Source: an uncultured delta proteobacterium (GTDB taxonomy: Bacteria; Desulfobacterota; Binatia; Binatales; Binataceae). Taken from it: a DNA stretch of 64,000 bases. The position numbers and the translations under genes are program-made. The stretch is from positions 512,001 to 576,000 of the forward strand of contig CAWJET010000001.1 of NCBI GenBank assembly GCA_963842085.1, given 5' to 3'. Below, piece by piece: positions 20,344 to 42,956 of the stretch. The notes under the pieces were generated by a model. That model had not been told where the DNA came from. It saw only the letters and a program-made list of their open reading frames with translations, and searched no databases. Position 1 is the first letter of the stretch, and each line of letters starts with the position of its first letter.

Positions 20344-20404
20344 GATGATTCGGGCGCGCGGGCGGCTGTTGTATCTAACTTAGGATCGAATTCGTCGGTC
20401 CGAT

Positions 20405-20462
20405 CGTGTGTGTGGGGCGAATTACTGATTTCCCCAGAATCAGCAATTCGCCACCCACAGGT
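20405..20462. repeat. REP-like hairpin, copy 1
   Basis: CGTGTGTGTGGGGCGAATTACTGATTTCCCCAGAATCAGCAATTCGCCAC; matches 39867-39919 and 42544-42590. Confidence 0.85.
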
Positions 20463-21007
20463 GATTTGCAGCGCGATCCGATCACGCCTTCAGGCCCCAC
20501 GCAAAGTCTTTTTCTCGAATCCATACTGGCGTCCTCTGGCCGGTTGAAAGCGATCGCGAGCGAACATTCGTTGTTGCCGCCAGCTACGGCCGCCGATCCG
20601 GCGAGCGGCAAAGGAACCGGCCCGCTGGATTCGGCGGCCAAGGAAGAGCTCGAGCGCGAGGCCCTCGCGAAATTTCTCGGTCCGGTAGCGGAATCGATGC
20701 GGCGGCAAGAGGGCGCTACTCACGCCGCAGCCGCTCTAGCGCGGCCGGCCGGGTCTCGCGGCATCTTCCTGTTCTGGTTAGTGATCGCACTCTCGGCCGG
20801 TGCGATCATCGCGGCCCTCGCAACAAAGTAAGCGGCACGATTTCGATCGCCACTGCCAGTCCCTGAAATCCAAGACTTGGCTTGCCGGTAACTTGCGCCA
20901 GTGAAAGTCTGACGATCTAGCGGCGCATGGCCGGCCCGATCGCTTCCCCCAAAGAAGCGAAAGAAGCAAACGGAGAATGGACCCGTTCCGTCGGAGGAGG
21001 ACTACGG

Positions 21008-37832: not shown

Positions 37833-38455
37833 TCACCAGCATCCCTTGATCCGTGAAAAACGACCACCAGTGGTGACACGCGGCAGGTCGTCCCATTCAA
37901 CGCTGCCGGGTTTGGGTAATGGGATGTACCTAAATGGCTCCGGTGCGGTGATGTAGTTGAACGCTCCGCAGGCGGCATCTACCTGATCATCATGTGCGTA
38001 CTCCCGCTCATTGGGGCTAAATTGCTCGCATTCTTCCAGGAACGCTTCGTTCCAAGCGCTGCGCAGCAGTTTCAGGTTGCCGGCCTCGGCAGCCGCTCGG
38101 AATGGTTGTGACCGTTCGAACTTGGTACCCCTGACTTGATCGGCATAAACCGGATACCCCAGTAGCAACCCCCGTCGCATAGCGTCGATCCATAGCGCGC
38201 TACCGCTCCCGGGCTCCTGTTGCAAGACAACGCGTATGTTACGGCTGTCTTGACCTGCGATATTCGCAATGAAGCTTTCGACTTCATGAGGGGTGCCCTG
38301 CATGCGCGCCACATGGAGGATATAGCCGACCCCATTGCGTGCGATGCCGTATTTGACGCCTGCAGTAAAGTCGCTGGTCTTAGTCTTTTGGTAGGCGGTG
38401 TCCCAATAACGTATGATCTCCAGTTCGGCGGGTGGCGCATCCACGATCTGGAACC
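37833..38455 (-). pseudogene. C-terminal nuclease domain of a phage terminase large subunit (ATPase half missing)
   Basis: RYWDTAY..SDFTAG, QEPGSG, WNEAFLEE, HDDQVDA. Confidence 0.85.
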
Positions 38456-38547
38456 TGATGGGATGGACCGCTCCCTACTGATAACGGCCTCAATGGGCCA
38501 AGGTGGTACGTTCGACCACCAACAATCGAAGCAGGGAGGGTCCGAAG

Positions 38548-39588
38548 ATGCAGGTTACTACGGTCGGGATCGATCTGGCAAAGAACGTGTTCTGTCTTCA
38601 CGGTTGCGATGCACAGGGCAGGCCGGTGTTGCGCAAGCAACTCGCGCGGCGGCAGCTGCTGAGCTTCGTCGCCATTCTGCCGCGGTGCCTGGTGGCGATG
38701 GAGGCATGTGCGAGCGCGCACTACTGGGCGCGCGAGATTGAGAAGCTCGGTCACCAGGTGCGGCTCATCAGTCCCAGGTTCGTAAAGCCTTACGTCAAAG
38801 CCAACAAGAACGACGCCAGCGACGCCGAGGCGATCTGCGAGGCGGCGAGCCGGCCGTCGATGCGCTTCGTCGCCGTCAAGAGTACCGCGCAGCAGGAGGT
38901 GCAGGCGGTCCATCGGGTGCGCCAACAGCTGGTGAAAACCCGAACTGCCCTGGTCAACCAGGCGCGCGGACTGCTGGAATTCGGCATCGTGGTCGCGCAG
39001 GGAGTTGGGCGCCTGCGCCGCGCCTTACCTACCATCCTCGAGGATCGGGAAAACGGACTCAGCGGAGTGATGCGCGAGCTGCTCGGAGAGATCGGCGAAC
39101 GTCTGAGGTTCATCGATGATCGCCTGCACAAGTATGACCTGACCATCCAGCGGCTCTTCCGCCAGGATGAACGCTGCCAGCGAGTGGCCGCAGTTGAAGG
39201 CGTGGGTCCGCTGACCGCCACCGCCCTGGTCGCTGCGGTGGGCAACGCCACCGACTTCAGAAGCGGGCGCGAACTAGCGGCCTATCTCGGACTGGTTCCG
39301 CGCCATCGCGCCAGCGGCGGGCGCACGGTGCTGCTCGGGATCAGCAAGCGTGGCGATCGTTACCTGCGCACGCTGCTGATTCACGGTGCGCGCTCGGCCC
39401 TGCTCCGGATCGAGCGGCAACGCAGTGCGCGCGCCATCTGGGCCGCGCGGCTCAAGCTTCGCCGTGGATCTAATGTGGCGGCGGTTGCGTTGGCGAACAA
39501 GAATGCGCGAGTGCTGTGGGCGCTGCTCAACCGACACCAGAGCTATCAACCAGCGCCGTTTCCCGCCCGCGTCCCCCAAAGTGGTTGA
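38548..39588 (+). CDS. IS1111 DEDD recombinase/transposase
   Basis: GIDLAK, MEAC, KNDASDA, GVGP, ASGG, ISKRGD.YLR. Confidence 0.95.
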   Translation: MQVTTVGIDLAKNVFCLHGCDAQGRPVLRKQLARRQLLSFVAILPRCLVAMEACASAHYWAREIEKLGHQVRLISPRFVKPYVKANKNDASDAEAICEAASRPSMRFVAVKSTAQQEVQAVHRVRQQLVKTRTALVNQARGLLEFGIVVAQGVGRLRRALPTILEDRENGLSGVMRELLGEIGERLRFIDDRLHKYDLTIQRLFRQDERCQRVAAVEGVGPLTATALVAAVGNATDFRSGRELAAYLGLVPRHRASGGRTVLLGISKRGDRYLRTLLIHGARSALLRIERQRSARAIWAARLKLRRGSNVAAVALANKNARVLWALLNRHQSYQPAPFPARVPQSG

Positions 39589-39649
39589 GGGAACGGCGGG
39601 CGGAAAATGGCTTTACCAGCCCTGAGATTGTGCAGGCTGTAGCGGAGAG

Positions 39650-39820
39650 CATGATGGCGAACCGGTCGGAACCGGCACCTTCTCGAACCTGGCCACACAC
39701 AAGGCCTTCGAGGCCGTGAACCTGATCAGGCGAAGGTGCGCGAACTTCCATCTGGGCCCGGGGCACAAAATGACGCCCCACTCAACGAGGCCGAATATAT
39801 GACTGCAACCGGATCATCGC
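39650..39820 (+). ncRNA. putative bridge/seekRNA of the IS1111 element (ends approximate)
   Basis: Stem GCACCTTC/GAAGGTGC encloses GCCACACACA and GAACCTGAT, which match the two genomic flanks; a second loop has TTCCAT and ATATATG matching the circle junction. Confidence 0.8.
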
Positions 39821-39866
39821 TCATCAAACTCCACAAACAGTCTTGCGCCCGGGAGCGGTCCATATA

Positions 39867-39919
39867 TGTGTGTGGCGAATTGCTGATTCTGGGGAAATCA
39901 GTAATTCGCCACACACACG
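39867..39919. repeat. REP-like hairpin, copy 2 (IS1111 target)
   Basis: 22-bp stem with one G.T pair, 7-nt loop: TGTGTGTGGCGAATTGCTGATT-CTGGGGA-AATCAGTAATTCGCCACACACA. Confidence 0.9.
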
Positions 39920-40329
39920 GGGCCGGCCGTCATGTTCGGCAGATCGAATTGTGCACGAAGCATGGCAACGTCGTTATCGCGCGCGCGCGGCCTTGAGATT
40001 TCCGATCGGCGGTTCAGATAAGGAACGGGCCAGCGAGGGAGGGGGGCCATTTCGCCGGCCCGCTGCCGACTGGTGAAAGGAAGGAGGCAAACACTAGCCA
40101 GCGATCTCCTGACTACTAAATTGCCGCGCGAGCGTCCAACGTCGGTGATACTCAGCCCCGAATTAAGACAGTACCGGTGGCCTGATGGCTTGGTGGCCTT
40201 GTTCTTCTCGCGCTCGAGCTTGCGCAGTTCCAGCTTGCGGTCGCGCTTCAGCCGGCGGAGTTCCTCGGCCCGGTCGTGCAGCCGATCCACGGTTTCTGCT
40301 TGCTTAGAGAAGGCGCGCCGAATCGAGCT

Positions 40330-42543: not shown

Positions 42544-42590
42544 CGTGTGTGTGGCGAATTACTGATTTCCCCAGAATCAGCAATTCGCCA
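42544..42590. repeat. REP-like hairpin, copy 3 (one arm truncated)
   Basis: CGTGTGTGTGGCGAATTACTGATTTCCCCAGAATCAGCAATTCGCCA. Confidence 0.85.
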
Positions 42591-42956
42591 GAGTCACCCC
42601 AACTGCAAAGGCTCCCCAAAGCATAAGTTGGCTTACAATAGAACCATGTTACCAAAAATGCATGCCAGCCCGTCAACCACCGCGTTGTCAACCACCCTAT
42701 AGCGTCAACCGGTTGACGGTTGACGGAGAGCAGTTCGCATTAGACTGGCTCATCCAGCGGACGGTCAGAGATTTTTCGGGGCCTCTCCGGATGAATGATC
42801 GCCTTGGCACGAAGCTCGATCGCAGCGCCCGCCGTGACGAAAGTTCCATCTATGCCTGACGCACAAAGGGGTCGCCATTATCGACGTTAGGCGTGCCCGA
42901 GATGTATCGTGAATGGAAGCCGAGACGGCAGCGGCCCTTATGGCCCTGATCGAAAC

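Follow-up and report, generated by a model that had tools for sequence, protein, structure and literature searches.

The window analyzed here, 64,000 nucleotides of an uncultured delta proteobacterium of the Binataceae (assembly GCA_963842085.1, contig CAWJET010000001.1, positions 512,001 to 576,000 of the forward strand), carries an insertion sequence (IS) at positions 38456-39866. With high confidence, this is a complete element of the IS1111 family, whose noncoding region on the downstream side of its transposase gene (tnp) encodes a seekRNA or bridge RNA matching the element's own insertion site. Its anatomy and boundaries, the TG overlap at its ends, the covariation of guides and flanks, a covarying RNA fold, and an insertion polymorphism were established by sequence comparison. 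A preliminary description of this stretch had already proposed an IS1111 element with a guide RNA for its own site, and family anatomy, guide–flank covariation, and the covarying fold agree with this proposal. The strings it was built on (GCACCTTC, GAAGGTGC, GCCACACACA, GAACCTGAT, GGCC-TTCGA-GGCC, TTCCAT at 39746-39751, and ATATATG) were all found at their positions.

The boundaries of the element (Table 1) were set from three genomic copies, empty palindrome arms, and one pair of a filled and an empty site. Nine matches to the element are listed for the genome (4.93 Mb in two contigs, C1 and C2), three of them full length: the copy in the window (100%), copy B (C1:3241030-3242446; 97%), and copy C (C2:1664629-1666049; 88%). 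These three occupy the same arm of the same palindrome, which is the outcome of a check on the flanks of other copies that the preliminary description had suggested. Their left junctions read xxxCC-TG-ATGGGATGGACCGCTCCC, and their right junctions read GGGAGCGGTCCATATA-TG-TGTGTGGCGAATT..., followed by the palindrome. The genome contains 23 occurrences of the arm motif GTGTGTGGCGAATT, of which 3 are occupied by the IS and 20 are free; CC-TG-TGTGTGGC is found in 8/20 free arms, and AT precedes the motif in none of the 20. A filled counterpart is available for a site at C2 ~1570286 (minus strand), which is empty in this genome and reads ...GGGTGTC AACC TG TGTGTGGCG. In a soil DNA run (X1), a contig of 114 nucleotides (nt) begins with 24 flank letters exact to this site and continues with window positions 38452-38541, showing no difference over 90 bases of the left end. 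As the site is empty here and occupied in X1, the TG is common to both junctions. Contigs of other loci in X1 and X18 begin their exact match to the window at 39867. Hence, by the free arms and the filled/empty pair, the dinucleotide shared by both ends is TG (38456-57 and 39867-68), and the uninterrupted target is ...ACC-TG-TGTGTGGC.... The same TG is found at both junctions in all 16 relatives that could be delimited.

This places the crossover three bases away from where it had been assumed. The preliminary description had reconstructed the empty site as GAACCTG-AT-GTGTGTGGC with AT as the core, which the free arms and the filled/empty pair contradict: the AT that closes GAACCTGAT represents the initial bases of the IS body. 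The predicted circle junction, given before as CCATAT-AT-GGGAT, becomes three bases longer and reads CCATATA-TG-ATGGGAT. Also, the insertion had been assigned to the edge of a hairpin resembling repetitive extragenic palindromes (REPs). The palindrome arm starts at ACCTG, within a whole repeat of roughly 56 bp, and the insertion hence lies five bases inside the stem. The genome harbors 12 complete hairpins, 3/12 of them occupied by the IS, with clusters on C1 (924-939 kb) and C2 (1.25-1.67 Mb). Besides the occupied palindrome, the window has two free copies at ~20402-20464 (C1:532402-532464) and ~42546-42600 (C1:554546-554600). The domain PF01797, which would link such repeats to REP-associated tyrosine transposases (RAYTs), has one genomic match at C1:1118947, away from any hairpin. 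Because of this lone match next to 12 hairpins and 23 arm matches, we term the repeat REP-like.

Table 1 Features of the IS1111 element and its insertion site (window positions)
Feature	Position	Strand	Remarks
Left target half GAACC	38451..38455	+	Flank outside the IS; identical to guide bases 39718-22
IS1111-family insertion sequence	38456..39866	+	1411 bp if, as is usual in the family, the left end includes one TG
Left terminal extension TGATGGG	38456..38462	+	7 bp; begins with the core TG
Left subterminal inverted repeat ATGGACCGCTCCC	38463..38475	+	13 bp
Transposase/recombinase gene	38548..39588	+	346 aa; Pfam PF01548 and PF02371
Predicted seekRNA/bridge RNA region	39651..39823	+	Covariance-model match; functional part probably ~39651-39815
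Helix 1, 5' strand GAUGG	39653..39657	+	Copy of the IS left end; pairs with 39748-52 (RNAalifold)
Target-loop closing stem	39675..39682 with 39732..39739	+	GCACCTTC (RNA GCACCUUC) with GAAGGTGC (RNA GAAGGUGC)
Top-strand target guide GCCACACACA	39692..39701	+	Complementary to TG plus TGTGTGGC (39867-76)
Inner hairpin GGCC-UUCGA-GGCC	39703..39715	+	Between the target guides; 3/4 pairs compensatory in the 58-sequence set
Bottom-strand target guide GAACCTGAT	39718..39726	+	GAACC and UG core (same sequence as left flank plus TG), then AU
UUCCAUC, helix 1 3' strand and candidate donor guide	39746..39752	+	Complementary to G-ATGGGA with one G.U pair
Donor-loop inner stem GGCC/GGCC	39755-58 with 39789-92	+	Distal hairpin 39760-64/39775-79
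Donor guide AUAUAUG	39795..39801	+	Same as right end ATATA plus core TG (39862-68)
TTGCGC, candidate -35 of a circle-junction promoter	39843..39848	+	16-nt spacer to the would-be -10 TATGAT
Right subterminal inverted repeat GGGAGCGGTCCAT	39851..39863	+	13 bp; complement of 38463-75
Right terminal extension ATA	39864..39866	+	3 bp
Remaining REP-like palindrome	39867..39919	.	TG 39867-68, TGTGTGGC 39869-76, right arm to ~39917

The core TG is where the matches of the target guides (39692-701 and 39718-24) overlap. These matches are unlikely to be due to chance: of 5000 shuffles of the 278-nt noncoding region, 17 had a match of at least 10 nt to the right flank, 39 had one of at least 9 nt to the left flank, and 0 had the two at once. 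The 15-mer specified by the two guides, with up to one mismatch, is found at 6 genomic sites compared with 0.57 expected from composition, and 6/6 lie in these palindromes. The AU that closes 39718-26 equals the initial two bases of the IS body, an equality found in 14/16 aligned elements; the guide is followed by GAU in 14/16 and by GAC in 2/16. This AU may be part of a handshake or of the scaffold. As a separate candidate, an IS621-like handshake extension of the top-strand guide was considered and rejected, as the A and G after GCCACACACA have no match in the donor or on the left side of the target.

The comparison with relatives extends this match beyond a single element. One genome per species was scanned, which gave 92 encoded relatives, 80 of which were kept; the closest of these reside in Binataceae and in metagenome-assembled genomes labeled 'delta proteobacterium.' By their conserved ends, 16 elements (L004 among them) were delimited, and nine target groups can be distinguished among their flanks. 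The best matches of an RNA region to its own flanks sit at the same two noncoding positions in most of 17 elements. For L017-19, these are UGGGUCA for the top-strand and AAAACUGAU for the bottom-strand match with the target AAAC-TG-ACCCA; for L040, GAACUCUCA and UUCUACUGAU with TTCTAC-TG-AGAGTTC; for L045, CAGCAGCCA and CGACUGAU with CGAC-TG-GCTGCTG; and for L004, GGGGUGCA and UGGCCUGA with TGGCC-TG-CACCCC. L012 has the bottom-strand match CAAUGUGAU. In an unanchored best-match matrix of RNA regions against flanks, with one representative for each of the 9 target groups, the own-flank sum is 136, whereas 133,496 derangements have a mean of 101.8 and a maximum of 117. Close relatives, with transposases 81-97% identical, use at least three different target sites.

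The core itself is treated less uniformly by the RNAs. In L014-16, the core position is CG, or G opposite T, in each of the four guide segments, with TG at both DNA junctions; similar core mismatches are noted for L048 and for L030-L033, and the junctions of L030-33 are CA on the left and CG on the right. Judged from these segments, the RNA evidently does not match the first or second core base in every case.

The guides are embedded in a predicted fold (Table 1). RNAalifold on a set of 13 sequences and pair counts on a specified structure support the closing stem of the target loop, the inner hairpin, the GGCC/GGCC stem, and the distal hairpin. A covariance model, R1, was built from this set. 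It scores 179 bits at 39651-39823 and matches 65 places in 65/72 sources searched, window and model-building sequences counted in. Within the 13-sequence set, 90.7% of cells are paired, compared with 34-44% when partners are slid, and 7 pairs have changed on both sides. The set of 58 distinct sequences has 93.4% paired cells and changes on both sides in 26/30 pairs, although this alignment was fitted to the model and therefore favors the structure. In the closing stem of the target loop, compensatory pairs number 4/6 among the 13 sequences and 6/6 among the 58 distinct relatives. Along the RNA, the first strand of the outer stem is followed by the top-strand guide, the hairpin, the bottom-strand guide, and the second strand of the outer stem. 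In the seekRNAs of the IS1111 group, the top-strand match likewise lies 5' of the bottom-strand match and overlaps it, according to PMC11187229. The domain closed by helix 1 (39653-39752) spans 100 nt and the two-module region ~165 nt; in size, these predicted forms resemble the seekRNA forms published as short (82-96 nt) and long (148-172 nt) (PMC13604230). A 3-bp closing stem for the donor loop (39740-42 with 39804-06) was discarded: it is always paired, varies on one side only, and cannot be nested with helix 1.

That relatives outside of the palindrome (L017-19, L040, L045, and L004) carry sequences of their own flanks at the same two positions is difficult to reconcile with a recombinase that finds the palindrome by protein contacts or by hairpin or cruciform DNA, the matches then being target leftovers carried in by the element. 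Such a recognition is suggested by the location of all four REP-inserted copies within a perfect palindrome, by left-half guide matches of just 2/5 and 3/5 in two copies, and by an RNA that is deduced from sequence alone. The compensatory changes of the fold that holds the guide segments speak against it as well, as does the requirement of the RNA for transposition in published IS1111 members (PMC11187229). We regard recognition by protein or DNA structure as highly improbable and retain the guide RNA as explanation of the matches.

Several observations weigh against the guide RNA as read here. Among the relatives, the top-strand match of L048 is just 5 and lies elsewhere, that of L080 is 5, the left guides of L013, L014, L015, and L016 fit poorly, and the RNA of L012 fits the flanks of the window (17) better than its own (14). 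The left-half pairing is loose, with 4/5 in copy B, 2/5 in copy C, and 3/5 in L010; the flank pentamer, GAACC in the window, is GACCC, TTACC, and TTACC in the other REP-inserted copies. TG and right half are matched every time in copies B and C and in L010. The minimum free energy fold of 39589-39875 is no better than that of shuffles (z -1.21), which is why covariation was used as evidence for the fold. A scan of 38300-40100 against Rfam (E <= 1) gave no match to the RNA region and two unrelated sub-threshold matches, ar14 and AaHKsRNA41. Contigs from peat metatranscriptomes cover 39491-39814 (X17) and 39672-39868 (X16); as such libraries can contain DNA and the contigs bear neither strand nor ends, they are a weak hint of an RNA. 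Contigs of four runs contain no circle or excision joint, with uncovered parts being uninformative. In addition, a pairing inside the RNA is predicted for UUCCAUC, one of the two donor segments, so that its role as a donor guide is uncertain.

The protein and the DNA ends conform to the family throughout. PF01548 (DEDD_Tnp_IS110) covers residues 6-144 of the transposase (E 5.6e-17) and PF02371 (Transposase_20) residues 210-292 (E 1.2e-22), and the family motifs are GIDLAK (D9), AMEAC (E52), NDASDA (D89, D92), and GLVPRHRASG (S256). The protein thus has the DEDD (RuvC-like) N-terminal and PF02371 C-terminal domains, the length of 330-350 aa, the catalytic D-E-D-D, and the serine of GL-P----S(T)G that characterize IS1111 transposases. 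A sequence search of solved structures returned the transposases of IS621 (E 6e-5; 8wt6) and ISCro4 (E 1e-4); in the alignment to the IS621 chains, whose numbering is offset by 2 from the S241, D102, and D105 of PMC11208158, S256 falls on the catalytic serine and D89/D92 on the D..D pair. Plasmid-borne relatives of the transposase reach 58% identity at best, and the element is therefore an unnamed IS1111 member. The layout described for the group in PMC11187229 comprises subterminal repeats of 11-13 bp with extensions of 7 bp on the left and 3 bp on the right. Repeat length and extensions of this kind are found here, together with a noncoding region that is longer downstream of tnp (278 nt, 39589-39866) than upstream of it (92 nt, 38456-38547). 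The same 13-bp repeat is also present in L010 and L012. Insertion is site-specific, the three genomic copies and L010 lying at one position of one repeat, and proceeds without extra duplicated bases, the flanking TG being present once in empty sites. All sequence-level features of the IS1111 group that can be tested are thus found in this element, and so are sequence-level features of a seekRNA or bridge RNA: overlapping guides to two strands, covariation of guide and target, and a conserved fold with the guides in internal loops.

For the donor side, the preliminary description had noted a second loop in which TTCCAT and ATATATG match the circle junction. This is strongly supported for ATATATG. 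A test on 42 delimited elements, equal to 25 distinct combinations of ends and RNA segments, shows that the segment at the AUAUAUG position tracks the right end: 0/20,000 permutations scored as high. Right ends ATA-TG, ACA-TG, ACG-TT, GTA-CG, and ACA-CT thereby go with the RNA segments AUAUAUG, AUACAUG, AUACGUU, AUGUACG, and AUACACUU, respectively. The test omitted 17/65 model matches in which no repeat was found and six with wrongly detected repeats; the automatic repeat finder was wrong in 10 loci, and anchored boundaries were used for the window, L015, L016, and L048. TTCCAT is indeed complementary to the left end, but it is not free, as it is predicted to pair with GAUGG at 39653-57. This pairing, helix 1, shows double-sided changes in 4/5 pairs among the 58 distinct relatives. 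The segment at the UUCCAUC position follows the left end less tightly (15/20,000 permutations at least as high), partly because ATGG is nearly invariant. In distant relatives where the helix varies, the left end varies too: L056 combines the left end TGATGA with the 5' strand UGAUGA and the 3' strand UCAUCA, L028 combines TTAATGA with UUAAUGA and CAUUAA, and in L077 and L075 (AAGGT), the left end changes along with the helix strand. In the TT-core group and in L077, helix 1 is longer than the left end could pair with. In L034, the helix is altered (AUCGUGG/CCAUGAU) and the left end is not. We read UUCCAUC as a strand of the helix that is at the same time complementary to the left end.

One could speculate that the segment reading the left end is masked in the free RNA by the upstream mimic of that end, switching the RNA between a closed form for the target only and an open form. 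In this rather doubtful model, the closed form would correspond to the published 'short' seekRNA, and the open form would arise when the left end of the DNA displaces the mimic. Such a switch could gate excision against insertion or block a premature capture of the donor, and the helix, if real, would bear on how IS1111 RNAs recognize their donor. No helix equivalent to helix 1 is described in the text proper, figures and supplements aside, of PMC11187229, PMC11208160, PMC11208158, PMC13626964, PMC12288879, and PMC13604230, as far as these texts were available; we do not claim novelty for it.

In the proposed mechanism, the element would encode a DEDD/serine recombinase and a downstream structured RNA of ~165 nt. 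In the target loop, GCCACACACA would pair with the top strand of TG-TGTGTGGC and GAACCUG with the bottom strand of GAACC-TG, overlapping on the core TG, so that the paired guides would place the element within one arm of the ~56-bp REP-like palindrome. The second module would present AUAUAUG, corresponding to right end and core, and UUCCAUC, complementary to the G of the core and the left end; these donor segments would hold the circularized element at its junction CCATATA-TG-ATGGGAT. By analogy with characterized members of the family, we infer that this RNA is produced and the recombinase binds it, that the element forms a circle with a junction promoter, and that a change of guide leads to a change of target. 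That the recombinase might be programmable, as the preliminary description put it, likewise derives from published relatives such as ISEc11 (PMC11187229).

No sigma-70-like site was found within the element, and one is present in the left flank (38388-38417). It is usual for members of the IS1111 family to have no internal promoter (PMC11187229), and for this family, a promoter formed at the circle junction has been put forward (PMC11187229; PMC12288879). Here, joining the ends would create a candidate -10, TATGAT, from 39865-68 and 38458-59, as read by eye, and the candidate -35 is conserved as TTGC[GA]C at the same place in 14/16 aligned elements. Both features are consistent with a putative circle-junction promoter. 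The contigs of the peat libraries X16 and X17 differ from the window by G>C at two places, 39718 (the left guide's outermost base) and 39732, where the 3' strand of the closing stem starts; these are natural variants of the RNA in related populations.

The filled/empty pair—C2 ~1570286 being empty in the genome and filled in a soil metagenome—is an insertion polymorphism and suggests that the element moved within this population not long ago. It thereby also bears on the possibility that the element is a guide-bearing IS1111 member, of which this copy and its genomic family are merely immobile relics. Full copies number only three, the genome holds truncated and end-only remnants of related elements, a circle joint was absent from four runs, and a promoter-like site is lacking inside the element—all of which would suit a relic. 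However, its open reading frame (ORF) retains all catalytic residues, its ends and repeats are intact on either side, copy B has 97% identity, the site that is empty here is filled in the soil DNA run with 0 differences over 90 left-end bases, and an internal promoter is normally missing in the family (PMC11187229). Immobility is hence quite improbable, and the element is probably complete and still mobile, or was so until recently.

Related elements occur elsewhere in the genome. A second IS1111 species (C1:1494333-1495659, minus strand; L004/L006) has 69% DNA identity and the target GGCC-TG-CACCCC, matched by its own guides GGGGUGCA and UGGCCUGA. L005 (C1 ~2581100-2581800) is a 5'-truncated relative with a complete RNA region and right end; of L007 (C2:1291509-1291580) and L009 (C2:1669880-1669944), only the donor module and/or the right end are left; and L008 (C1:1662449-1662611) is a broken transposase fragment of a decayed relative. 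The ORF adjoining the IS on its left (37833-38444, minus strand, 203 aa) encodes only the C-terminal nuclease domain (Terminase_6C, E 2.9e-11) of the large subunit of a phage terminase, the ATPase half being missing; IS and palindrome occupy the place where this ORF should continue. Neither of the two ORFs past the palindrome matches a Pfam family. The ar14 match mentioned above lies at 40021-40100 on the minus strand; this alphaproteobacterial small RNA family is matched weakly (22.3 bits against a gathering threshold of 58.8, E 0.15) by two hairpins with CCUCC-type loops, and the match reaches the edge of the searched stretch.

The element adds an unnamed member from a little-studied soil lineage to the IS1111 family. 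Its close relatives, with transposases 81-97% identical and guides naturally rewritten for at least three targets, are useful for learning which positions of a guide count: matching is strict in the right half and TG and loose in the left half, and the RNA does not match the first core base in every case. For annotation, the lesson is to use empty sites, and not repeated end letters, when defining the limits of such elements.

Among characterized systems, IS621 of the IS110 group (Escherichia coli) shares the DEDD and serine recombinase, a REP target, guides for two strands that overlap on a core dinucleotide, and separate target and donor modules (PMC11208158). It differs by an RNA located upstream in the left end, a reversed order of guides, a CT core, and inverted repeats of 2-3 bp (PMC11208160), and the present element differs from it by a predicted pairing between one of its donor segments and a copy of the left end located upstream in the RNA. 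ISEc11 and ISXne4 have the same architecture as the elements compared here and display the same natural retargeting, in which both guides are replaced and the stem is retained (PMC11187229). For ISEc11, the RNA, the circle, the junction promoter, and reprogramming were shown by experiment (PMC11187229), whereas the present element is known from its sequence. ISPa11 of Pseudomonas aeruginosa is again of the IS1111 type, inserts at a fixed place in a REP, and carries its seekRNA downstream of tnp with the top-strand match before the bottom-strand match (PMC11187229); its RNA forms of 96 and 172 nt (PMC13604230) compare with the predicted ~100 and ~165 nt. Host lineage and REP sequence differ, and the likeness of the two elements is one of described features. 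The element in the window is an ordinary instance of the RNA-guided mechanism described for IS1111 in 2024.

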